Assembly (NCBI RefSeq): GCF_002954715.1
Contig: NZ_MSCP01000003.1
Span: 9,159 to 33,158 of the forward strand
Direction: 5' to 3'
Source of the DNA: Aliivibrio sifiae
Lineage (GTDB): Bacteria > Pseudomonadota > Gammaproteobacteria > Enterobacterales > Vibrionaceae
Length of the DNA: 24,000 nucleotides
A program made the translations under genes and the position numbers. How positions within the stretch are numbered: the first letter of the stretch is position 1; each line of letters starts with the position of its first letter. Below the pieces are notes generated by a model. It made no database searches. It was not told where the DNA came from and was given only the letters and a program-made list of their open reading frames with translations. This document shows, piece by piece, positions 8,281 to 19,514 of the stretch.

Positions 8281-10263
8281 ATGAAACTCTCTGCTAAACC
8301 TGTTTCACTTGCTGTATTAGCTGGCTTAGGCTTACTAACGATTTCTGGCTGCACACCATCGCCAGTAGATACAAACGAAGTGATTAAATTGCGTGTTGTC
8401 GAAACAACAGATATCCATACCAACCTAATGGATTACGATTACTACAAAGATAAGCCATCTCAAAAAATTGGTTTAGCACGTACAGCAACACTAGTAAAAG
8501 AAGCTCGCGGCGAAGTGATAAACAGTGTTCTTGTTGATAATGGTGATTTGCTGCAAGGTAGCCCAATGGGTGACTATATGGCAGATAAGGGCTTGGAAGC
8601 TGGTGAAGTTCACCCTGCTTACAAAGCAATGAACCAATTAGATTACGATGCGGGCAACATCGGTAACCATGAATTCAATTACGGTTTAGATTTCTTAGCG
8701 GAATCTATCAATGACGCCGATTTCCCTTATATCAGTGCTAATGTTTATGACGCAAAAACAAAAGAACATTATTTCAAGCCTTATGTAATTAAAACTCACA
8801 CGTTTAAAGACACTGCGGGCGTAGATCATGAAATTAAGGTTGGTTATATCGGTTTTGTCCCACCACAAATTATGGTGTGGGATAAGAAAAACCTTGAAGG
8901 AAAAGTATTCGCTCGTGATATCAAAGAAACAGCGGAAGAACTGATCCCACAAATGAAGAAAGAAGGTGCAGACGTAATCGTTGCAATTCCTCATTCAGGT
9001 GTATCAACAGATCCATACAAGCAAGGTGAGGAGAACTCTACTTATTTCTTATCTGAAGTAGACGGTATTGATGCGATAGCCTTTGGTCACTCTCATGCTG
9101 TTTTCCCTGGCAAAGGGTTTGACAACCTACAAGGTATCGATAATGAAAACGGTACGATGAATGGCGTAGCAGCAGTAATGCCTGGACGTTGGGGTAGCCA
9201 CGTCGGTGTGATGGATTTAACACTTAAACAGAAAGATGGTAAATGGTCGGTTGTTAATGGAGAGTCGGAAGCTCGCCCTATCTTTGATAAAGAAAACAAC
9301 AAATCATTAGCTGTTGCTGATGAAGGTATCGTAAAAGCATTAGAAGCGGATCATAAAGGTACTCGTGATTTCGTAAATCAACCGATTGGTAAAGCTGACG
9401 ATGTTATGTATAGCTTCTTAGCATTAGTACAAGATGACCCTACAGTTCAAATCGTTAACCTCGCGCAAAAAGATTACGTGGAGCGTTTCATTCAAGGGGA
9501 CCCTGATTTAGATGGTACTCCTGTACTTTCTGCTGCTGCTCCATTTAAAGCCGGCGGTCGTGGAAATGACCCAACAAACTTCACTGAAGTTGAATCGGGC
9601 CAATTAACGTTCCGTAATGCGGCTGATTTATACCTATACCCTAATACGCTAGTTGCGATGAAGGTAACAGGTAAAGAAGTGAAAGAATGGCTTGAGTGTT
9701 CTGCTGGTCAGTTCCAACAAATCGACATCAATAGTACAGCACCTCAACAGTTAATTGATTGGGATGGTTTCCGTACTTATAACTTTGATGTCATTGATGG
9801 CGTTAACTACCAAATTGATATAACTCAACCTGCAAAATATGATGGCGACTGTAATGTCATTAACGAAGGTTCTGAACGTATTGTCGGTTTAACTTACCAA
9901 GGCAAACCAATTGATGCGAAACAAGATTTTCTTATCGCAACCAATAACTACCGTGCTTACAGCAATAAGTTCCCGGGTACTGGTACTGACTTTATCGCGT
10001 TTGATTCTCCTGATGAAAACCGTACCGTTCTTTCTAATTACATAACACGAGTAAGTAAAGAAGAGGGACAAGTTAAGCCATCAGCAGATAACAACTGGTC
10101 TTTTGCACCAATTGAAGGTGGGGAAAAACTGGATATCCGCTTTGAAACATCACCAACAGAAAAAGCAGCTCAATTCATTAAAGACAAAGGTCAATACCCA
10201 ATGAAGAAAGTCGCAACGGACGATGTTGGCTTTGCCGTTTACAGTATTAACCTGAGTAAATAA
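8281..10263 (+). CDS. cpdB: 2',3'-cyclic-nucleotide 2'-phosphodiesterase / 3'-nucleotidase, predicted lipoprotein form
   Basis: Metallophosphatase motifs [14 protein letters not shown] and GNHEFNYG, followed by a 5'-nucleotidase-type C-terminal domain. I place the start at ATG 8281 (GGAG at 8271-8274) rather than the track's TTG at 8269. The signal peptide ends in the lipobox ISGC (Cys codon 8350-8352). Confidence 0.9.
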
Positions 10264-10722
10264 TTTCGTTAAGTCATTAGATTGATGGTGAAAAATAGAA
10301 ATAGCATCGTTATTTAACGGTGCTGTTTTTTTACATAAACCATAAAATAACGTATTAGCAGCCAAGCTCCCCGTAAAAATATTAATTAAAATAAGTAACA
10401 CTTGAATATAATCATCAATATTTATCTTGGTTAGCCCTAGCCACTCCACTTCTATCCAACTCGCTAACAATTCCTCTTTTGCAGACAGTACATCTATTGA
10501 TGCAAACGTCCCTAAAATAATTAATAGCACACTGCAAAGTACATAATGAAACCATTGGTCTGCATATACGATTGCACTAAGTAAATTAAAAATTAAAACG
10601 CCATAAGCCAAAAATGAGAAAAAATAAAACACTTCATAAATATGAAAAACGAAAGCCGCAATAAAGAAAACGACAAAAAAGCCTGCCGCAATATCTAGGT
10701 GTAACCAAAACCTTATATTCAT
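10150..10722 (-). CDS. Hypothetical polytopic membrane protein
   Basis: 190-aa ORF in an AT-rich, stop-rich context. The first ~130 aa form about four hydrophobic helices ([62 protein letters not shown]). The last ~38 codons are antisense to the cpdB 3' end and may not be genuine coding sequence. Confidence 0.5.
10303..10332 (+). terminator. Candidate rho-independent terminator of cpdB
   Basis: AGCATCG (10303-10309) pairs with CGGTGCT (10318-10324), giving 7 bp including one G-U and an 8-nt loop. It is followed by GTTTTTTT (10325-10332), 40 nt after the cpdB stop. Confidence 0.5.
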
Positions 10723-10807
10723 AAATAAACCAAATCAAAATGAACCAATTATTAATCACAAGCTCAAATTAAAACAAATGAGAAACATATATTTACATTT
10801 TTTTAAT

Positions 10808-10820
10808 AGAGTGCCACTCT
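10808..10820. promoter_or_regulatory. Palindrome AGAGTG-C-CACTCT immediately upstream of the DedA-first operon
   Basis: Read directly. It lies 25-37 nt upstream of ATG 10845, just before the AAAAGGAGGG ribosome-binding site. It is a possible operator, with no known consensus assigned. Confidence 0.25.
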
Positions 10821-10844
10821 AAATAAATAAGAAAAGGAGGGTTT

Positions 10845-11435
10845 ATGAATGATTTAATCACCAATATACAAGAAGCATTGTTTACATATCAGAGCTCTGA
10901 ACTCTCTATTTTTATCGGCATAATTCTACTGTCTTACTTACTTGAAGACTTAGCCATCATCACTGCAGCAAGCCTATCTTCACAAGAAATGATTACACCT
11001 ATCATAGGCCTAACGGCAGCTTTTATTGGTATCGCCAGTGGGGATTTAGGATTGTATTTCTTAGGCCGACTCTCTATTCGCTTTCGACTACTTCGATATA
11101 AAACTTTAACCAATACTCATTTACGTTACTTAAGGAAAAAACTCCAATCCAATCCTATGCTTAATTTATTCATTATTCGTTTTATTCCGGGATTAAGGAC
11201 CATTGGCTTTACGTTGAGTGGCGTATTTCATATCCGTATATTCACCTTTTTTATCGCAGTAATGGGAGCAACGGCAGTGTGGACATCCATTGTTTTTCCT
11301 AGTGTGTACTTTTTGGGGAGTAGTCACTGGGTAAAAACTAGTGAACATCAATGGCTATTAATTCCAGTCATGACATTGGTTTTATTTATCACAAATCGAT
11401 TTGCAAAAAAGAAAATTTCAAAGGAACTGACGTAA
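10845..11435 (+). CDS. DedA/VTT-domain family inner-membrane protein
   Basis: 196 aa with a strong SD (AAGGAGGG). It has several TM helices and the DedA-like motifs LLEDLAIITAASL ... GDLGLYFLGR ... FIIRFIPGLRTIGFTLSG. Confidence 0.75.
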   Translation: MNDLITNIQEALFTYQSSELSIFIGIILLSYLLEDLAIITAASLSSQEMITPIIGLTAAFIGIASGDLGLYFLGRLSIRFRLLRYKTLTNTHLRYLRKKLQSNPMLNLFIIRFIPGLRTIGFTLSGVFHIRIFTFFIAVMGATAVWTSIVFPSVYFLGSSHWVKTSEHQWLLIPVMTLVLFITNRFAKKKISKELT

Positions 11436-12562
11436 TGGTTAATAACATCAATACGATTACCACCGGTCATATCAATGCAGGTATGCCACAACTAGAGTCA
11501 GACACTCATCGTAGTGTGTCGCCTTATGAATTTTTACCAAGCTGGTTTTTTTACACTCCAGTAGTTATACAAAGTTTTTTTCTTGGTATAAAACATTTTG
11601 ATTTCGCACTTCCTCTGATTGCTAATCCATCAATAAAATTAAGTGGCATGATTGGTGAGTCTAAACACGATATTTTAACTCTTGCAGGTCCAATAGCTCA
11701 GCAATGGATATCTCCATTTACCACTATCACAACGACTAGCACCCCTATTTTGCAGCAAACTCAAAACGCCATTGAAGCCATGGATAAGCAACACCTTTCT
11801 TTCCCTGTTGTTGCTAAGCCTGATTTAGGTTGTCGTGGTGTTGGCGTTAAATTAATTCAATCCCCAAAGCAGTTGAGTGAATATTTTAGTTCTTTTCCCA
11901 TCAATGCACGTTTTTTAATCCAAGAAAAAGCACCTTACTCAGCTGAAGCGGGAATTTTTTATGTTCGTTATCCAAATGAAAAAAAAGGAAAAATAATTTC
12001 GATAACCCTTAAATATTCTCCGTTTGTTGTTGGAGATGGCACTAGCACATTAAAACAGTTAATAGAAAATGACAGCAGAGCCGGACAATTGGCTCATTTG
12101 TACTTACCTCGTCATGAAGAAAAGTTAAATACCATTTTAGAAAAGGGAAAAGAATTCCAACTCGCCTTTGCTGGTAGCCATAGCCGAGGATCTATTTTTA
12201 GAGATGGGAATCAATACATCACAGAAGCATTAGCTGAACGACTAGACCAAATATTTAATGATTTAGAAGGATTTCACTACGGTAGGTTGGATGTGAAATT
12301 TAAAGACATTTTCGATTTAATGAATGGCGATAATTTTACTATTTTAGAAATTAATGGGGCGAGCAGCGAAGCCGCTCATATTTGGGATAGAAATACGCCT
12401 CTAAAAACGATTTTTTCCACCTTATTACTGCAATACAAAATCTTATTTGAAATTGGTGCACTGCAAAAAAAACAAGGTCATCACTCCCCAAAAATAAAAG
12501 AACTATTGGCTGCATGGAAAGAAGAAAAGCAACTGACTCTTCAATACCCACCAACCGATTAG
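11435..12562 (+). CDS. ATP-grasp family amide-bond ligase with ~130-aa N-terminal extension
   Basis: I place the start at ATG 11435-11437, overlapping the upstream TAA (TAATG); the track's earlier start lies inside the DedA gene. ATP-grasp hallmarks are FPVVAKPDLGCRGVGVKLI, FLIQEK and FTILEINGASSEAAHIWD. Confidence 0.8.
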   Translation: MVNNINTITTGHINAGMPQLESDTHRSVSPYEFLPSWFFYTPVVIQSFFLGIKHFDFALPLIANPSIKLSGMIGESKHDILTLAGPIAQQWISPFTTITTTSTPILQQTQNAIEAMDKQHLSFPVVAKPDLGCRGVGVKLIQSPKQLSEYFSSFPINARFLIQEKAPYSAEAGIFYVRYPNEKKGKIISITLKYSPFVVGDGTSTLKQLIENDSRAGQLAHLYLPRHEEKLNTILEKGKEFQLAFAGSHSRGSIFRDGNQYITEALAERLDQIFNDLEGFHYGRLDVKFKDIFDLMNGDNFTILEINGASSEAAHIWDRNTPLKTIFSTLLLQYKILFEIGALQKKQGHHSPKIKELLAAWKEEKQLTLQYPPTD

Positions 12563-12577
12563 ATAAAGGAGTTTTTC

Positions 12578-13120
12578 ATGCCAACACCTGCCTTACAAGA
12601 CATACATCAATCACCAGTTATTAGTGGTTGTATAGATGAATTACAAAAAGGAATTTCTTTATTAAATTCAATTAGCGATAGTGATTATATCCACCTTGCT
12701 TTGCCTTATGTAGAAAGTACTATCGGTGAGCATTTCCGACATATATTAGATTTGTTTCAATCATTAATTCAAAAAGATCATCATGGGCCAATTGATTACA
12801 ATGTTCGTCGTCGAGGTCATGAGATAGAAACAAATAAGAAACTAGCCATCACAGAACTTAATGATGTTATTCGTTGGTTAGATCTTTTCCCTATTGGGCG
12901 CCTCACCTCTTCAATATCATTAATTACCGAGGTTTGTCCTTATAAAAAACAAGAGCACACTATGACTTCAAGCATTGAACGAGAAATTACCTTTGCTGCT
13001 CTCCATGCGTCTCATCATTACGCGTTAATTAAAGTTATCACCCTTTCAATCGGTATAACTACTCAATCAAACTTTGGATTAGCACCAACGACAACCACCT
13101 ATTTGCGAGGGGAAGCCTAA
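12578..13120 (+). CDS. DinB-superfamily (DinB_2/YfiT-like) protein
   Basis: 180 aa with AAGGAG 6 nt upstream of the ATG. A His-triad-like pattern is present: TIGEHFRHILD near the N-terminus and ALHASHHYALI near the C-terminus. Confidence 0.65.
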   Translation: MPTPALQDIHQSPVISGCIDELQKGISLLNSISDSDYIHLALPYVESTIGEHFRHILDLFQSLIQKDHHGPIDYNVRRRGHEIETNKKLAITELNDVIRWLDLFPIGRLTSSISLITEVCPYKKQEHTMTSSIEREITFAALHASHHYALIKVITLSIGITTQSNFGLAPTTTTYLRGEA

Positions 13121-13866
13121 TGTGTACTCTTTCTTGGTTTAGTACCCCAACAGGTTATGAATTATTTTTTAATCGAGATGAGCAACGCTCTAGAACAGAT
13201 GCATTAGCGCCCCAATTATTCCAAGAAAATAATGTGTATTACATTATGCCAATCGATCCTGTTGGTGAAGGCAGCTGGATTTCACTTAACAATCACGGGA
13301 TCTCACTCTGTCTATTAAATTACTATCAGGGGGAAATTGCCCCTAACAATGCATTAAGTCGCGGATTACTTGTAAAAGAGCTAGCATCTTGTGATGGTGT
13401 AAATTCCATTCAGAAAATACTTTCTAACATGGACCTATCACGCTTTGCTTCCTTTACTTTATTAATCTTTCACTCTGATGACTCAATAAAACATAAAAGC
13501 GTTCAAGGGTTTCGCTGGGATGGAAAGCGGTTTACATCAATTGCTCCTAGTTCACCCATGATCTCCTCTTCTGTCGATGCTGATAATGTCATCAAGCATC
13601 GCTTATCTGTTTATAAGCAACTAACAGACTCTGGAGTAAACAGACAAACACTGAATCAATTCCATCAACACCATCATTCTAAACTAGGACATCGTTCTCC
13701 TTGTATGCATCGTCAAGATGCCCAAACGGTCAGTTTTACTCACATCATTGTCGATAATAAAAAGAATACATTACGTTATCTTCCGAGTTCACCATGTCAA
13801 ACAAAAAAGTATTTGGCCTATGATGTACCCTCCCATTCATACGACAATACTCACTCATACAGTTAA
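13120..13866 (+). CDS. NRDE / TANGO2-family protein (Ntn-hydrolase-like, Cys2)
   Basis: 248 aa. Its ATG overlaps the upstream TAA (TAATG at 13118-13122). The N-terminus MCTLSW has Cys at position 2, and the eponymous NRDE motif is at 13171-13182 (LFFNRDEQRSR). Confidence 0.8.
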   Translation: MCTLSWFSTPTGYELFFNRDEQRSRTDALAPQLFQENNVYYIMPIDPVGEGSWISLNNHGISLCLLNYYQGEIAPNNALSRGLLVKELASCDGVNSIQKILSNMDLSRFASFTLLIFHSDDSIKHKSVQGFRWDGKRFTSIAPSSPMISSSVDADNVIKHRLSVYKQLTDSGVNRQTLNQFHQHHHSKLGHRSPCMHRQDAQTVSFTHIIVDNKKNTLRYLPSSPCQTKKYLAYDVPSHSYDNTHSYS

Positions 13867-13883
13867 CCCATAAGGTCATGATT

Positions 13884-14324
13884 ATGAAAAAGTTATTATG
13901 TTTTTTTATATTATTATTTAGCCAAGCAACGTTTGCATCAGACGCTATTTATACTGGTTTTTTTAGTAATAAAGCAATTGATGGTTATGACAGTGTTAGC
14001 TACTTCACTGCAGAAAAACCACTAAAAGGAAGCTCTGAATTTGTAACCTCTTATATGAATGCCGATTGGTATTTTATATCTCAAGAAAACTTAGATTTAT
14101 TTAGCGAAAATCCTACAAAATACGCGCCTCAATATGGGGGGTTCTGTGCTTGGGCTATCGCAGCAAAAAATGATCGAGCTCCTGGTGATCCGAATCAATT
14201 TTCAATTGTTGATGGGAAACTGTATTTAAATTATGACGCAGGCGTCAAAGCTCTGTGGGAAAAAGACATTCAGGGCTTCATCACGAAAGGCGATAAAAAC
14301 TGGCCTAAGTTATTAAAAAATTAA
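13884..14324 (+). CDS. Exported YHS-domain protein
   Basis: I place the start at ATG 13884 (AAGG 8 nt upstream) rather than 13878. It has the signal peptide MKKLLCFFILLFSQATFA and the motifs AIDGYDSVSYF, YAPQYGGFCAWAIA and IVDGKLYLNY, as in the family annotated YHS domain-containing (seleno)protein. Confidence 0.75.
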   Translation: MKKLLCFFILLFSQATFASDAIYTGFFSNKAIDGYDSVSYFTAEKPLKGSSEFVTSYMNADWYFISQENLDLFSENPTKYAPQYGGFCAWAIAAKNDRAPGDPNQFSIVDGKLYLNYDAGVKALWEKDIQGFITKGDKNWPKLLKN

Positions 14325-14337
14325 AGGAATATAATTT

Positions 14338-16095
14338 ATGGTTACGAGTCCATTTAGACTTCCTAGAGTTACACCTTTTGGGATTGGAGAATCTTTTGCA
14401 GAATGGGTTACTGGATTAAATCGTTTGGATTCCCATTATCAAGATCGTCCTCTGGGATTAAATAGTTTTGAGTTTATGCGTTATACCCTTCAACGCTTGA
14501 ATGTGACTTATGATATTCATCAAGGTAAATTAAATTTCATTCCAAAAACAGGGCCAGTCGTAATTGTAGCTAATCATCCATTAGGAGCTTTAGAAGGGGT
14601 GATATTAGCTGAAATGATAGGACGCATTCGTCCAGATGTAAAAGTATTAGCTAATAAATATTTAAAACAAATACCTGAAATTAGTGAATTATTTATAGGC
14701 GTCGATGTTTTTGAAACAAAGCAGGCAAAAAAAAACAATACCAACGCTTTACGAGAAGCCCATCAACACTTAGCAAATAAGGGGGCTTTAATTATTTTTC
14801 CCGCAGGTGAAGTCTCTACTTACAATAAAGAAACAAAACTATTATCCGATAAACGGTGGAGCTATTCTGCTGCAAAGTTTATTGAAAAACACAATGCCAC
14901 GACCGTACCTATTTACATTGATGGTAAAAATAGCCAAACGTTCTACCTTGCTGGAAAGCTCCATCCATTATTAAGAACATTAATGTTGGGTCGAGAAATG
15001 CTCAATAAAAAAGAGAATACTATTCACCTATCTATCGGGGCTGCAATTCCTCACAAAGAACTCTCTAGTTTCAATTCTCCTATTGAAGTAATTAATTATT
15101 TAAGACTAAATACCTATTTACTCGCTACCAATACTGACAACGAAACGCCAGTAAAGGCACCATCTCAAGCTTTATCTCCAGTAATTTCACCAATTGACAT
15201 TTCGATTTTAAAACACGAAATAGAATCACTCCCCAGTGATGCTAAATTATTGGAGCAAAATGGACTTTCTGTTTACTGCACTAAAAGCAAAGCTATTCCC
15301 AATATAATGCAGGAAATAGGACGGATAAGAGAGGTCACTTTCAGAGAGGTAGGTGAAGGTACAGGTCTTGCTTGTGATTTAGATGAATATGATACGCACT
15401 ATTATCATCTTTTTATTTGGCACCAAGATAATCAAGAAGTTGTAGGTTCATATCGATTAGGATTAGTGGACGAGCTCATCTCTAATTTTGGATTAGATGG
15501 GTTGTATTCTCGAAGCCTATTTAATTATCAACAACCATTTATTGATACGCTCAATTATTCTATTGAGGTTGGGCGATCTGTTGTTGCTAAAAAATATCAA
15601 CGAAATGTCAGTTCATTACTTCTGTTGTGGAAAGGAATCTCAACGTTTGTTTATCAGCGACCTAAATATACTCATTTATTTGGTCCTGTAAGTATTAGTA
15701 ATGATTACAGTTTATCTGCTCGTCAATTAATCGCATCTACGCTTGCTATCCATCATTACGATAATAAAAAAGCCGCTTTAGTCTCCGCAACAACACCATT
15801 AAAACCTGCACTAAAAAAAGTATGGAATGGCGATATGCTATCTCTGCTCGGAGATCTCAAGCTGTTATCAAAAGTATTAAGTCGAATTGAGAAAGGGAAA
15901 GGTTTACCCGTTCTACTGCGTCAATACATAGGTCTAAATGGAAAGCTTGTTTGCTTTAATGTTGATCCTGATTTCAATGATGCCCTCGATGGATTAATAG
16001 TGGTAGATATGAGTAATGTGCCACATAAAACATTAAGTAAATACATGGGGAAAGAAGAAGCGATGTGCTACCTTGAAAAACATCATCGTTGCTGA
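14338..16095 (+). CDS. Bifunctional lipid acyltransferase: N-terminal PlsC-like O-acyltransferase fused to C-terminal GNAT-type N-acyl amino acid synthase (OlsF-like)
   Basis: 585 aa. The N-terminal domain has VIVANHPLGALEG and IIFPAGEVS, which are acyltransferase blocks I and III. The C-terminal half has RIREVTFREVGEGTG...DEYDTHYYHLFIWHQDNQEVVGSYRLG, typical of OlsB/hemolysin-like N-acyltransferases. Confidence 0.8.
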   Translation: MVTSPFRLPRVTPFGIGESFAEWVTGLNRLDSHYQDRPLGLNSFEFMRYTLQRLNVTYDIHQGKLNFIPKTGPVVIVANHPLGALEGVILAEMIGRIRPDVKVLANKYLKQIPEISELFIGVDVFETKQAKKNNTNALREAHQHLANKGALIIFPAGEVSTYNKETKLLSDKRWSYSAAKFIEKHNATTVPIYIDGKNSQTFYLAGKLHPLLRTLMLGREMLNKKENTIHLSIGAAIPHKELSSFNSPIEVINYLRLNTYLLATNTDNETPVKAPSQALSPVISPIDISILKHEIESLPSDAKLLEQNGLSVYCTKSKAIPNIMQEIGRIREVTFREVGEGTGLACDLDEYDTHYYHLFIWHQDNQEVVGSYRLGLVDELISNFGLDGLYSRSLFNYQQPFIDTLNYSIEVGRSVVAKKYQRNVSSLLLLWKGISTFVYQRPKYTHLFGPVSISNDYSLSARQLIASTLAIHHYDNKKAALVSATTPLKPALKKVWNGDMLSLLGDLKLLSKVLSRIEKGKGLPVLLRQYIGLNGKLVCFNVDPDFNDALDGLIVVDMSNVPHKTLSKYMGKEEAMCYLEKHHRC

Positions 16096-16113
16096 CTTAG
16101 ACCAATTTAAATA

Positions 16114-16686
16114 ATGCTCACAAATTTTATTAACCAACTCGATGGCTATGGTTTTACCACTGAAGAGATTGCAGAATTAATTCAACATAGCCATCAAGCA
16201 CAATTAACCTCAAAAAAAATCATTACTCGACAAGATGACGTAGCTGATAATCTCTACTTTCTTTTAGATGGTATTTGCCATGCTTCTTATCTTACTGATC
16301 ATGGGAAACAATTTAGTAAGGAGTTTTACTGGCAAGGCGATTGGATTGTTTGTTTTGAAGGCGTTATAAATAACACTAAATCACCTTATACTCTTGAAAC
16401 ATTAACTCCGACGACACTTTTGTCTTTACCTATTTCTTATATGAAACAATGGCGAACACAATCTCACCCTCTTTATATTAAATTATTAGAAACTCAACTA
16501 ATGTATAAAGAAAAAAAAGAGCGCTTCATGCTGCTTTATTCTCCTCAAGAAAAATATGAAATTTTCTGCCAAACATACCCTGAGTTAATTGAAAAATTAA
16601 ATGATTATCAAATTGCAGCTTATTTAGGAATTACTCATATCAGTTTAAGTAGAATTAAAGGCAGAATAAAAAATAAATTAACATAA
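16114..16686 (+). CDS. Crp/Fnr-family transcriptional regulator
   Basis: 190 aa. It has a cNMP-binding-like beta-barrel region (LYFLLDGICHASYLTDHGKQFSKEF) and a C-terminal HTH (YQIAAYLGITHISLSRIKGRI). It starts 18 nt after the acyltransferase stop, with no obvious SD. Confidence 0.75.
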   Translation: MLTNFINQLDGYGFTTEEIAELIQHSHQAQLTSKKIITRQDDVADNLYFLLDGICHASYLTDHGKQFSKEFYWQGDWIVCFEGVINNTKSPYTLETLTPTTLLSLPISYMKQWRTQSHPLYIKLLETQLMYKEKKERFMLLYSPQEKYEIFCQTYPELIEKLNDYQIAAYLGITHISLSRIKGRIKNKLT

Positions 16687-16750
16687 GTTAATGCTCAAAA
16701 AAGTCGGAATTGCTATCTTGTCATTTCAATTACGCACAGAGAATATCATT

Positions 16751-17203
16751 ATGATCCACTGGCAAAGCATTCCTTTTCATCAATTAACAACGGTTCAGTT
16801 ATATGAATTACTCCGCCTGAGAGTCGATGTCTTTGTTGTTGAACAAACTTGCCCTTATCCTGAATTAGACGGTAAAGACTGCGCTGAAGGCGTGCACCAC
16901 TTAATCGGTTATATAGATAATAATATCGTTGCTTGCGCACGGTTACTCCCTGCTGGTATTTCTTATAACAATGTAAGTATCGGCCGTGTTGCGACCAAAG
17001 AGAGTGCCAGAGGCAATGGACTTGGTCATAAGTTACTTTCTGAAGCATTACGCCAATGTGAGCAACTGTGGCCGAATACCGATATTGAAATTGGAGCTCA
17101 AGAACACTTGACCAATTTTTATCAAAACCATGGGTTTTTAGTGACGTCTGATATGTATTTAGAAGACGATATTCCTCATGTCGATATGCTGCTAGTTAAG
17201 TAA
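16751..17203 (+). CDS. elaA: GNAT family N-acetyltransferase, ElaA type
   Basis: From ATG 16751 the protein begins MIHWQSIPFHQLTTVQLYELLRLRVDVFVVEQTCPYPELDG and ends ...GAQEHLTNFYQNHGF...EDDIPHVDM. This closely parallels E. coli ElaA as I remember it. The track start at 16691 adds 20 unlikely residues. Confidence 0.8.
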   Translation: MIHWQSIPFHQLTTVQLYELLRLRVDVFVVEQTCPYPELDGKDCAEGVHHLIGYIDNNIVACARLLPAGISYNNVSIGRVATKESARGNGLGHKLLSEALRQCEQLWPNTDIEIGAQEHLTNFYQNHGFLVTSDMYLEDDIPHVDMLLVK

Positions 17204-17211
17204 TCTCTCTA

Positions 17212-18075
17212 ATGAAACTAAAAATGTCATCTATTAACCTAGCCATTTTATTACTTGTTCTCGGTAATCTAATGGCATCACTGTCTGATGTCGCGGTAAA
17301 AGTTTTGGAAGGTGGGGTATCGCCTTTTCAGTACATTTTTATTCGTCAGTTAGTTTCATTAGTTCTTATATTCCCTTTCTGGATTAGGCAATCTCGTGAA
17401 AAACGGCAAATAAGTAATATCAAAATAACCGCAATTCGTGCTCATATCGTCCTCATAGGCAGTGGTTGCATGGTTGTTTCTATTACTTATCTTTCTTTAG
17501 CAACTGCGAATGCTATTTTTTACACTGCTCCTCTGCTAATGATCCCTTTATCTATGCTGCTGTTAAAGGAAAAGCCATCAACAAAAAAAGTAATTCAAAC
17601 CCTCATTGGTTTCGTGGGTGTACTTATTATTTTAAGACCTTCTCAGTTTCATTGGGCTGCGATTTTTGCGTTAGGTACAGCGATAACCTTAGCCTTATTT
17701 AATATTTTGATCCGAAGAATACCAAATGAACAATCGGTTATTACCACACTATTGTGGACAACATTATTCTCATTACCTGCCTCAGGAACTCTCGCCCTGT
17801 TGTACTGGCAGCCACTGACTCTCCACACTTTTTTCTGGGTGGCACTAAGTGCGAGTTGTATTATTACGTACAATGGACTTGCGACAATGGCCTATAAAAA
17901 GGCACCTGCAACACAAATATCATTGGCTGAATATTCTGGACTTATTTTTGTGGTTTTATTCGGGGTATGGTGGTTTGATGAAGTGCCTGATGCGTTAACC
18001 CTAATAGGAATAGGATTAATTATTTTTCCTCTCATGCCAAAAGAATGGCTTTTACGCATAAGAGGAAAAAGATAA
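17212..18075 (+). CDS. DMT-superfamily (EamA-type) transporter
   Basis: 287 aa with about 10 TM helices arranged as two EamA-like halves. It starts 8 nt after elaA. The exact start (17212 or 17224) is uncertain. Confidence 0.8.
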   Translation: MKLKMSSINLAILLLVLGNLMASLSDVAVKVLEGGVSPFQYIFIRQLVSLVLIFPFWIRQSREKRQISNIKITAIRAHIVLIGSGCMVVSITYLSLATANAIFYTAPLLMIPLSMLLLKEKPSTKKVIQTLIGFVGVLIILRPSQFHWAAIFALGTAITLALFNILIRRIPNEQSVITTLLWTTLFSLPASGTLALLYWQPLTLHTFFWVALSASCIITYNGLATMAYKKAPATQISLAEYSGLIFVVLFGVWWFDEVPDALTLIGIGLIIFPLMPKEWLLRIRGKR

Positions 18076-18091
18076 TAGTCGTTGGATTGTA

Positions 18092-18754
18092 TTATTTACT
18101 GCGTCCAAAATTCCCATCGGACATCCTAAAGAACATAATCGCTTCGCCCTGACGTTCAATTTGAACAATGTCTAATTCGCCTTTTGTATTTAATTTAAAG
18201 CGAAAAAGTTGGCCTTTTTTAACATTACTTAATGGTTTATCTGCACCTTCAATTTTTACCACTTTATTTAATTCTGTCAGTGATAAATTATTTTTCCTAA
18301 AGACTTGGTACAGCGTATCACCTTCTTGAATTTTGTAATCATGCCATTTTGCAGCGCGTTGTTCCGGTTCTGATATTGATGCTTCTGTTGTCTTTTCTAC
18401 CGATCTCGCTATTCTTTTTTCTTGTTCTTTTTCATAAGGTGAAGGGGCATTTCTGAGTTCAGTTTCTTGCTCACTTAATCCTTCTAAATTCAGGCTAACA
18501 CTTTGTCTTTGCATTTCAGCCGCAAGGATCGCTGCAGGCTGAATGCTCTCCCCTTCTCCTTTCTCGCCACTTGGTAATAAAAATAAAACACAAGTAACTG
18601 GCACTAAAACTCGTAATGCTTTTCGATGAAATACAGGTAAACGTAGCCAATAAGGCGAAACACTTTCGATAAGAGGTGCGCACTTTTTCTTAAATATGGT
18701 CAATTGCTCTGAAAAATCTGGACGCTTTATGTTCATTTTATTTTTTTTATTCAT
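18092..18754 (-). CDS. ytfB: OapA/LysM-domain cell-envelope protein (YtfB-like)
   Basis: 220 aa. It has an N-terminal TM anchor (VLVPVTCVLFLL), a LysM motif (YKIQEGDTLYQVFRKNNLSLTELNKV) and a C-terminal OapA-like domain. GAGG lies 7 nt upstream of the ATG. It is divergent from fklB, as in E. coli. Confidence 0.75.
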   Translation of the reverse strand: MNKKNKMNIKRPDFSEQLTIFKKKCAPLIESVSPYWLRLPVFHRKALRVLVPVTCVLFLLPSGEKGEGESIQPAAILAAEMQRQSVSLNLEGLSEQETELRNAPSPYEKEQEKRIARSVEKTTEASISEPEQRAAKWHDYKIQEGDTLYQVFRKNNLSLTELNKVVKIEGADKPLSNVKKGQLFRFKLNTKGELDIVQIERQGEAIMFFRMSDGNFGRSK

Positions 18755-18893
18755 ACCATCGCCTCATGCGAAACTGGTGAGCTCACGTTTTATTCTAATA
18801 TCAGAGTGCAAAGAAGTACAAAAGTTTACCTTAAGCTTAGATCTCTGTATCCTTTAGTCTTTCGTTTATACCATATAAAGAAAGAGAGACAGC

Positions 18894-19514
18894 ATGTCTG
18901 AAGTTAAATTAGAAACAGTAGAGCAAAGAGCAAGCTACGGTATTGGTCTTCAAATGGGCCAACAACTTGCACAATCGGGTCTTGAAGGCCTAAACGTTGC
19001 AGCTATCGCTAAAGGCATCGCAACTTCATTAACTGGCGACATGCCAGAAATCGAAGTTGACGCTATCAACGAAGCGCTTCAAGCACTTCACATGCGTGCT
19101 GAAGAAGCTCGCGCTGAAGCATCTAAAGCAGCTGCTGCTGACGGTGAAGCTTTCCTAGCTGATAACGCTCTTCGTTCAGAAGTAACTGTACTTGAATCTG
19201 GTCTTCAATATGAAGTACTAACTGCAGGTACTGGTGAGATTCCAACTTCTGATAAAACAGTACGTGTTCATTACCACGGTATGTTAACTGACGGTACAGT
19301 ATTTGACAGCTCTGTAGATCGCGGTCAACCTGCTGAATTCCCAGTAACTGGTGTTATCGCTGGTTGGGTTGAAGCTCTTCAACTAATGCCTGTAGGTTCT
19401 AAGTGGAAACTAGCTATTCCACAAAACCTAGCATACGGTGAGCGTGGCGCTGGCGCTGCAATCCCTCCATATGCTGCTCTAGTATTTGAAGTAGAATTAC
19501 TAGAAATCGTTTAA
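18894..19514 (+). CDS. fklB: FKBP-type peptidyl-prolyl cis-trans isomerase
   Basis: 206 aa, the same length as E. coli FklB. It has an N-terminal dimerisation helix domain and an FKBP domain ([18 protein letters not shown]...[10 protein letters not shown]). Confidence 0.95.

Follow-up and report, generated by a model that had tools for sequence, protein, structure and literature searches.

Why should a gene for an ornithine-lipid synthase be the last of six tightly packed genes, and what could the other five contribute? The question is raised by a 24,000-nucleotide (nt) stretch of Aliivibrio sifiae DNA (assembly GCF_002954715.1, contig NZ_MSCP01000003.1, positions 9,159 to 33,158 of the forward strand), here called the window, in which the cluster lies at 10845-16095. 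Coordinates follow the numbering of the window, and E-values and bit scores are those of Pfam and NCBIfam hidden Markov model (HMM) searches of its proteins. The six genes, with the short names used below in brackets, are:

10845-11435, + strand: DedA/VTT-family polytopic membrane protein, 196 amino acids (aa), orthologue of Vibrio cholerae VCA0651 (dedA)
11435-12562, + strand: divergent ATP-grasp ligase, 375 aa, orthologue of VCA0650 (ATP-grasp gene)
12578-13120, + strand: DinB/YfiT-fold protein, 180 aa, orthologue of VCA0649 (dinB)
13120-13866, + strand: NRDE/TANGO2-family protein, 248 aa, orthologue of VCA0648, its start overlapping the dinB stop (nrde)
13878-14324, + strand: exported YHS-domain protein with a signal peptide, 148 aa, orthologue of VCA0647 (yhs)
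14338-16095, + strand: OlsF-type bifunctional acyltransferase, 585 aa, syntenic orthologue of VCA0646 (olsF)

The cluster is an OlsF ornithine-lipid locus with conserved, largely unstudied accessory machinery. Ornithine lipids (OL) affect stress tolerance and polymyxin resistance, and their modification, transfer to the outer membrane and turnover are not covered in current reviews; in an ornithine-lipid review of 2026 the words degradation, turnover and translocation are absent. The original prediction, made from the sequence, assigned the six proteins to families and read the block as an operon for an amino-acid- or peptide-containing membrane lipid. All six family calls were borne out by HMM searches or by structure, the latter being predicted models for the ATP-grasp and DinB-like proteins.

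The ornithine-lipid synthase and its conserved cluster

The olsF product joins an N-terminal PlsC-like half (PF19576, 1.1e-16, residues 42-267; PF01553, 9e-9; GlsA-like half, 116 bits) to a C-terminal OlsB-like GNAT N-acyltransferase (PF13444 Acetyltransf_5, 9.9e-22, residues 330-431). Against the OlsF model NF052615 it scores 442 bits and does not reach the equivalog cutoff of 620, yet this cutoff is not decisive here because the proven OlsF of V. cholerae, VCA0646, which has the same architecture, scores a similar 435 bits and falls under it as well. The two synthases are 60% identical, the ATP-grasp protein is 62-64% identical to its V. cholerae counterpart (tblastn), and the same six genes stand in the same order in V. 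cholerae as VCA0651-VCA0646. By orthology to VCA0646, the olsF product is predicted to be an OlsF-type ornithine-lipid synthase, and its amino-acid specificity in A. sifiae is likewise a prediction.

The cluster can thus not be called uncharacterised, as it originally was, since VCA0646 is a proven ornithine-lipid synthase (PMC12186959) and vca0646-0649 is a described HapR-activated operon. VCA0646 alone yields OL in E. coli, and its deletion shows that it is needed for OL at low salinity; moreover, it contributes to polymyxin tolerance and is induced at low salinity from its own salt-responsive promoter (PMC12186959). Because of this internal promoter, the V. cholerae cluster is not strictly one transcript. 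The genes vca0646-0649 are activated together by the quorum-sensing regulator HapR and were termed “four genes of unknown function”; co-overexpression of vca0646 and vca0647 (OlsF and YHS), both of which are needed, leads to cell death that does not depend on the type VI secretion system (bioRxiv 10.1101/2024.09.23.614608). In the RNA-seq of a delta-iurV strain, VCA0650-1, VCA0648-9 and VCA0646-7 all drop together, along with cpxP, msrB, copA/copG, thioredoxin 2 and glutaredoxin (PMC7600106). The literature counts four genes in the V. cholerae operon, gives three of them as “unknown function” and does not link VCA0650/0651 to it, and our literature search found no paper tying the DedA and ATP-grasp genes to vca0646-0649 or to amino lipids. 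The junction between the ATP-grasp gene and dinB differs as well, with 15 nt in the window and 89 nt between VCA0650 and VCA0649.

Co-occurrence was anchored on the ATP-grasp gene and covered 80 of 362 genomic loci, all at 62% identity or more, from Vibrio, Aliivibrio, Photobacterium and Marinomonas (individual loci are cited by our numbers, as L001). The order dedA-ATP-grasp-DinB-NRDE-YHS-OlsF is kept in 74 of these 80 loci, so that the genes do travel together, and the six products are 39-92% identical to their orthologues across the four genera. The six-gene form of the window was found in 26 loci, while 48 carry an additional gene between yhs and olsF (dedA-grasp-dinB-nrde-yhs-doxX-olsF). 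Five of the other six end before olsF, most of them at contig ends, and the V. harveyi locus lacks dinB-nrde. dedA and the ATP-grasp gene overlap in 55/80 loci and the dinB-nrde spacing is 4 nt or less in 78/78, the loosest junction being that between the ATP-grasp gene and dinB (median 29 nt).

The additional gene (at 12897-13340 in L003, for example) encodes a polytopic membrane protein of 147 aa that is weakly MauE/DoxX-like (PF07291, 1.3e-3, below threshold), and is missing from the window at 14324-14338. Its presence varies even in Aliivibrio, where L002 has it and L001 does not; most Vibrio and Marinomonas clusters have it. The pairing of YHS with DoxX hints at a periplasmic thiol/quinone redox couple.

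The DedA-ATP-grasp unit and the other accessory proteins

An exhaustive search collected 2599 representatives of the ATP-grasp family, many of which are proteins of 520-600 aa with the ATP-grasp domain at the C-terminus and a VTT/DedA domain at the N-terminus; some relatives are triple fusions of alpha/beta-hydrolase, DedA and ATP-grasp. When the DedA and ATP-grasp proteins of the window were concatenated, they gave one colinear high-scoring segment pair with each of six fusion proteins (E 2e-88 to 9e-135). Since the two are fused in other phyla and align colinearly with the fusions, dedA and the ATP-grasp gene represent the split form of one protein.

Distant contexts were sampled in ten genomic members and in 80 metagenomic fusion loci annotated with custom HMMs. 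Adjacent amino-lipid synthase genes (OlsF or OlsB/OlsA) were carried by 4/10 of the former: OlsF precedes the fusion in Mariprofundus (Zetaproteobacteria); in Hydrogenedentes the order is DinB, TANGO2, fusion, OlsB-like, OlsA-like; one further genome has DinB, fusion, OlsB-like, OlsA-like and alpha/beta-hydrolase, and another has YHS, DinB, fusion and OlsF. The remaining contexts consist of alpha/beta-hydrolase, DedA and ATP-grasp, of Asp/Glu racemase, fusion and YHS, or of the fusion alone, and in Paracoccus the ATP-grasp gene lies beside an alpha/beta-hydrolase and a VTT gene. The alpha/beta-hydrolases found with the fusions match generic hydrolase models only. Among the 80 metagenomic loci, 9 have adjacent OlsF or OlsB/OlsA, 5 DinB, 4 NRDE, 2 YHS and 6 alpha/beta-hydrolase, counts that are lower bounds because many contigs are short. 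In 22 metagenomic loci of the range L107-L167 (e.g. L137, 9628-10641), the fusion overlaps a downstream YegS/DAGK_cat-type lipid kinase gene, again a lipid setting; in this large and more distant clade an aldehyde dehydrogenase gene precedes the fusion and no ornithine-lipid genes are present. This suggests that the lipid handled by a “ligate-and-flip” unit differs from lineage to lineage. The fusion of DedA with ATP-grasp across phyla and its association with TANGO2 and DinB are noteworthy and new, being apparently unreported.

A separate observation concerns the racemase context: in L085 (6085-9214), and also in L099, the Asp/Glu racemase gene stands directly 5' of the DedA-ATP-grasp fusion, which is followed by the YHS gene, a possible hint of a D-amino acid as ligase substrate in this lineage.

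DedA proteins have been implicated in the translocation of phospholipids and of polyprenyl phosphates such as undecaprenyl phosphate. The dedA product has hydrophobic segments and matches PF09335 VTT_dom (3.2e-11, 44.2 bits against a gathering threshold of 33.9); with 18 bits on the NCBIfam UptA equivalog, for which the cutoff is 250, it is not UptA. The ATP-grasp protein gave weak RimK and cyanophycin-synthetase HMM matches, all below the family thresholds. Its AlphaFold2 model has a mean predicted local distance difference test (pLDDT) score of 82.9, and the top 50 Foldseek matches of this model are all ATP-grasp enzymes, led by the CphA2/CphA1 G-domain and GshAB and followed by Ddl and RimK, at distances that are large (TM-score 0.3-0.46, 10-19% identity). 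Residues K128, D286, E305 and N307, invariant in the family, align with the catalytic positions of CphA2 (the Lys and the Mg ligands), and the enzyme is predicted from the residues present to be catalytically competent. It also has a moderately hydrophobic N-terminal helix (residues ~34-62), and a database entry from A. sifiae is 100% identical to it.

Hundreds of ATP-grasp orthologues are auto-annotated as “D-alanine--D-alanine ligase” despite matching no Ddl model. For the window protein this label is not supported: PF07478 gives 16.1 bits against a cutoff of 24 over 47 residues, NCBIfam gives no Ddl match, and Ddl structures rank under cyanophycin synthetase and GshAB in the Foldseek list. 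The label looks like a propagated mis-annotation.

The dinB product itself has no Pfam or NCBIfam HMM match; its orthologues have sub-threshold DinB_2/DinB matches, and a profile match links it to PDB entry 3dka. The top ~30 Foldseek matches of its AlphaFold2 model (pLDDT 84.8) are DinB/YfiT/BstA/MST/DfsB/ClbS proteins at TM-scores of 0.5-0.6, and H52, H55, H143, H146, H147, R54, R77, R79, E84, R135 and E136 are invariant among orthologues. The model is a four-helix bundle of the DinB/YfiT fold, carrying a putative His-based metal site (H52, H143, H147).

The NRDE/TANGO2 protein scores 35.4 bits (1.7e-8) on PF05742, for which the cutoff is 22.6, with a match confined to its N-terminal 150 residues. 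M1, C2, N18, R19, D20 and E21 are invariant in 79/79 orthologues; Cys2 and the NRDE motif are the active-site and acyl-CoA-binding residues in TANGO2 work. The protein is a putative cysteine N-terminal-nucleophile (Cys-Ntn) hydrolase, the group that includes acid ceramidase, NAAA and bile-salt hydrolase. TANGO2 was found to bind acyl-CoA via the NRDE motif and its structure to be akin to fatty-amide Cys-Ntn hydrolases, while its “function and substrates remain unknown” according to the same literature (PMC11867700, PMC13044924); the Shewanella homologue HtpA was assigned to heme trafficking instead (PMC10470608).

The YHS protein belongs to NF041384 YHS_seleno_dom, on which it reaches 159.8 bits (2.4e-47; cutoff 70), and also matches PF04945. 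Its N-terminus is hydrophobic (residues 1-24), and its single invariant cysteine, C90, lies within GG[FY]CAW and is kept in 81/81 sequences. Sequence searches of the YHS and NRDE proteins against the PDB returned marginal matches only.

Junctions, transcription signals and chromosomal setting

The six packed same-strand open reading frames (ORFs) are present exactly as predicted, including the TAATG stop/start overlaps at 11433-11437 (dedA/ATP-grasp) and 13118-13122 (dinB/nrde). The other gaps, given as 13-17 nt, measure 15 nt (ATP-grasp-dinB), 11 nt (nrde-yhs) and 13 nt (yhs-olsF), so that nrde-yhs lies below that range. Ribosome-binding motifs of the AAGGAG/AAGG type were confirmed 5' of dedA, dinB, yhs and olsF. 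An alternative upstream ATG for the ATP-grasp protein at 11351 was considered and disfavoured against 11435, because of the colinearity with the fusions and the conserved 4-nt overlap with dedA. The sequence around the six genes contains:

10723-10844, + strand: AT-rich upstream intergenic region, presumed promoter region, with an AAGGAGG ribosome-binding site at ~10834-10840
16114-16686, + strand: Crp-like cNMP-binding regulator (Pfam/NCBIfam), 18 nt after olsF
16691-17203, + strand: ElaA-like GNAT (Pfam/NCBIfam), after a gap of 4 nt
17212-18075, + strand: EamA transporter (Pfam/NCBIfam), after a gap of 8 nt

A scan of 10000-19000 on both strands for hairpins followed by a T-tract returned 6 sites, against 5.8 expected from shuffles. 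With matches at chance level there is no convincing terminator inside 10845-16095, in agreement with the original prediction; two weak + strand sites, at 12078-12095 and 13930-13944, both fall within ORFs. None was found after olsF either, where the crp/gnat/eamA trio continues at spacings of 18, 4 and 8 nt. Because no terminator follows olsF and three tightly packed + strand genes do, the A. sifiae transcript may extend to 18075. The trio was nevertheless rejected as a part of the core cluster, since in other genera it changes sides or is absent: in the V. nigripulchritudo/penaeicida group it lies 5' of dedA without leaving the cpdB-ytfB interval, and neither Marinomonas nor V. cholerae has it beside the cluster. 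Lying on either side of the cluster, the trio and the six genes are two separate blocks in one chromosomal slot. The equivalent cpdB/ytfB interval of E. coli contains ytfF, a gene of the EamA type.

The Rfam search of the window gave zero RNA element matches, including in the region upstream of dedA. A CpxR-type box, TTAAA-N5-GTAAA, with one mismatch to GTAAA-N5-GTAAA, lies on the - strand at 10777-10791, 53 nt 5' of dedA. Together with the joint drop with cpxP in the V. cholerae RNA-seq, it prompted the idea of CpxR regulation as a conserved trait; this was ruled out, as a similar box occurs in only 4/79 orthologous upstream regions (the window, its close relative L002 and two more), with a background of 2.2% per window.

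Aliivibrio and the Splendidus clade have the cluster between cpdB and ytfB-fklB, V. cholerae and V. harveyi carry it on chromosome 2, and in Marinomonas it occupies yet another place; being found in at least three chromosomal settings, it therefore moves as a block. The original prediction placed cpdB and ytfB-fklB close together in E. coli, which is correct (~5 kb apart); many species, however, hold the cluster elsewhere. In Marinomonas (Oceanospirillales; L031-L069) the ATP-grasp protein is 62-68% identical to that of Aliivibrio, compared with 62-72% in many Vibrio species, and the cluster order is the same, which suggests from sequence comparison that the block has passed horizontally between orders.

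Between cpdB and dedA sits a hydrophobic ORF of 190 aa (10150-10722, - strand) with no family match, which shares ~114 nt at its 3' end with the end of cpdB. Two related loci keep it, Aliivibrio L002 at 71% identity and Vibrio L023 at 48% (partial). Either a genuine small membrane protein or an ORF particular to this lineage may be present here.

Proposed amino-lipid remodelling, competing explanations and known systems

We propose, with moderate confidence, that the cluster is a conserved three-module operon for integrated amino-lipid remodelling: a core of DedA and the ATP-grasp enzyme that occurs in lipid contexts (module 1), DinB and NRDE (module 2), and YHS, with DoxX where present, together with OlsF (module 3). 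In module 3, OlsF would join ornithine and two acyl chains into OL at the cytoplasmic face, OL synthesis having been shown for the orthologue VCA0646, and the exported YHS protein may act on or with the OlsF product in the periplasm, with DoxX in the clusters that have it, since only the pair of OlsF and YHS kills V. cholerae when overexpressed. Module 1 is taken as one functional unit, as its two parts form a single polypeptide in other phyla. In a manner similar to MprF, its membrane-tethered ATP-grasp enzyme would form an acyl-phosphate and link a nucleophile to a lipid head group by an amide (or ester) bond, and the DedA-type domain would move the modified lipid to the other side of the inner membrane. 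The likeliest acceptor would be the free alpha-carboxylate of the N-acylated ornithine in OL or lyso-OL, in chemical terms the C-terminus of a peptide and thus of the class on which the closest structural relatives act (CphA G-domain, GshB/GshAB and RimK). The translationally coupled pair of module 2 could be an editing or turnover arm, in which NRDE, as a Cys-Ntn amidohydrolase, would attack either a fatty-acyl amide or the residue added to the head group, assisted by the DinB-fold putative metalloprotein. Overall, the operon may tune envelope charge and lipid composition when ionic strength is low, cell density is high or the envelope is under stress.

Extension of the OL carboxylate by the ATP-grasp enzyme is tentative, and we would sooner expect it to fail than to hold. 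Unlikely, too, is the fullest version, in which DedA-ATP-grasp is a new, tRNA-independent “ligate-and-flip” class that makes a dipeptide-type or amidated OL and exports it to the outer leaflet, with NRDE as a Cys-Ntn hydrolase of lyso-amino lipids. The lipid-centred reading of the original prediction gained strong comparative support from the DedA-ATP-grasp fusions of other phyla and from the repeated occurrence of this unit next to OlsF or OlsB/OlsA; its “head-group extension” stays conjectural, no modified lipid having been reported.

Several observations weigh against amino-lipid remodelling by the whole cluster. VCA0646 alone suffices in E. coli, so that basic OL synthesis can do without the other five genes; when V. 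cholerae was labelled with [14C]-ornithine at low salt, the only label was that of the origin and of OL (PMC12186959), and no modified OL has been reported in this species. vca0648 and vca0649 are dispensable for the death caused by overexpression, and deletion of vca0646-0649 gives no cell-death phenotype (10.1101/2024.09.23.614608). In V. cholerae, only vca0646-0649 are reported to be HapR-dependent, VCA0650 and VCA0649 lie 89 nt apart, and VCA0646 is preceded by a separate low-salt promoter. Moreover, the modules are separable: Salinivibrio has dedA-grasp-dinB-nrde without adjacent yhs/olsF, and V. harveyi is without dinB-nrde. The substrate of the ATP-grasp enzyme cannot be read from its sequence or model. 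Finally, most distant DedA-ATP-grasp genes are not beside OL genes, so that the lipid acceptor of the ligase may not be OL.

The separability of the modules and the sufficiency of OlsF are also what would be expected if the genes formed a stress island under common regulation and not a single pathway, an explanation that we judge unlikely although it survives best among the alternatives. Here OlsF alone would make OL and the other genes, which would have only regulation and location in common, would have independent functions in envelope, redox or metal stress: YHS/DoxX would deal with thiols or copper in the periplasm, DinB would be a detoxifier resembling thiol S-transferases, and DedA a general transporter linked to the proton-motive force or to lipid carriers. 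The fall of all six V. cholerae genes with copper, thioredoxin and other stress genes in delta-iurV and the internal promoter before VCA0646 fit this account, as do the bacillithiol and mycothiol S-transferases among solved DinB-fold relatives and the selenocysteine variants of the YHS family (NF041384), which suggest redox chemistry. Yet gene order and translational coupling are kept across genera, OlsF and YHS interact genetically, and DinB, TANGO2, YHS and OlsF or OlsB/OlsA regroup around DedA-ATP-grasp in unrelated phyla in differing orders. This re-assembly of the partner set makes shared regulation alone unlikely.

Perhaps the ATP-grasp enzyme opens a fourth route to amino lipids, similar to that of OlsH, by ATP-dependent coupling of an amino acid with a free (3-hydroxy) fatty acid; the resulting N-acyl amino acid would be acylated by the alpha/beta-hydrolases that are fused or adjacent in other phyla, as OlsI-like O-acyltransferases, and flipped by DedA, and in Vibrio the outcome would be a second amino lipid, or salvage of free fatty acids, alongside OlsF. 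There is a precedent in OlsH and OlsI (PMC12493201), and the triple fusions, the alpha/beta-hydrolase genes that adjoin in L082, L083, Paracoccus and six metagenomic loci, and the many DedA-ATP-grasp genes without nearby OlsF or OlsB all point this way. However, the nearest structural relatives join amino acids to peptide or amino-acid carboxylates and not to fatty acids, the route would duplicate OlsF or OlsB/OlsA in just those clusters that show the strongest linkage, and the hydrolases concerned give generic matches only. We thus regard it as rather improbable.

A carrier-lipid pathway comparable to Dlt or Arn seems decidedly improbable. The ATP-grasp enzyme would load an amino acid on a carrier such as phosphatidylglycerol or undecaprenyl phosphate for DedA to flip, and the invariant Cys of YHS (Sec in some relatives) would hand the group to an acceptor such as OL, lipid A or peptidoglycan. 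Such a pathway would suit the translocation of undecaprenyl phosphate and phospholipids in which DedA members are implicated, the weak match to the UptA model, the ester bonds formed by some ATP-grasp enzymes (VanA; a D-Ala-D-Lac ligase is among the structural matches), the polymyxin phenotype of the V. cholerae locus, and an exported YHS protein with one invariant Cys, whose gene stands beside the fusion without OlsF in L085, L096 and L099. YHS is nonetheless absent from most distant clusters, the loss of OL itself already explains the polymyxin phenotype, and carrier and acceptor are without direct evidence. As for the dedicated programmed-cell-death or abortive-infection system that was speculated for vca0646-0649, it is very improbable, given that no PADLOC-DB match was found for any of the six proteins, that the deletion shows no such phenotype, that a chromosomal, “housekeeping-like” cluster with lipid-biosynthetic gene content occurs in hundreds of species, and that surplus OL or lyso-OL damaging the membrane would readily account for the death seen on overexpression, as lyso amino lipids are lytic (PMC11631085).

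One tractable locus ties together the “cell-death” operon of V. cholerae quorum sensing, the cargo of DedA proteins and the substrates of TANGO2/NRDE proteins. The DedA-ATP-grasp fusion across phyla is a strong functional link, and the ATP-grasp enzyme a candidate for the type of enzyme that ligates amino-lipid head groups at the expense of ATP; for the cerilipin ligase, the gene has been missing since the 1970s. The widespread “D-alanine--D-alanine ligase” mis-annotation is corrected as well. We know of no activity for any member of the TANGO2/NRDE family; if NRDE is a fatty-acyl-amide hydrolase, this would be the first natural substrate class for a family that includes a human disease protein. 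These hypotheses are testable in V. cholerae, where mutants and assays exist.

Four known systems help to place the cluster. The enzymes of the CphA/CphA2, GshB, RimK and Ddl types have the fold and the nucleotide- and Mg-binding residues in common with the window ATP-grasp protein, and those of the CphA, GshB and RimK types activate the alpha-carboxylate of an N-substituted amino acid; the window enzyme differs from them by its own N-terminal hydrophobic helix and its coupling or fusion to DedA.

We know of no taurine-containing or extended OL in Vibrionaceae. In nature, however, ATP-dependent amidation of the OL carboxylate with taurine does occur in cerilipin, for which the gene is unknown (PMC12971839), and this amide bond on the OL head-group carboxylate is the type of reaction that an ATP-grasp enzyme beside OlsF could perform. 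A link through Acetobacteraceae was tried and found no support, the ATP-grasp homologue on a Komagataeibacter plasmid having no OL genes nearby. A precedent for ATP-dependent amide formation with an alpha/beta-hydrolase in an amino-lipid context, a domain that related fusions carry as well, is given by OlsH, a GH3-like ATP-dependent N-acyl-ornithine synthetase, and OlsI, an alpha/beta-hydrolase O-acyltransferase, which make OL (PMC12493201). OlsH belongs to the GH3/ANL superfamily rather than to ATP-grasp; the clusters described here also hold OlsF or OlsB/OlsA, and the window cluster is without an alpha/beta-hydrolase.

Finally, MprF and its partner hydrolase AcvB/VirJ likewise join a cytoplasmic head-group synthase to a translocator, often with a hydrolase, and MprF is linked to cationic-peptide resistance. 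The analogy is drawn from architecture and not from homology, as the cluster has no Pfam or NCBIfam matches to the MprF synthase (DUF2156/GNAT-like) or flippase. MprF takes its donor from aminoacyl-tRNA and has a different flippase fold, whereas the unit in the window would combine the acyl-phosphate chemistry of ATP-grasp enzymes with a DedA/VTT membrane domain.

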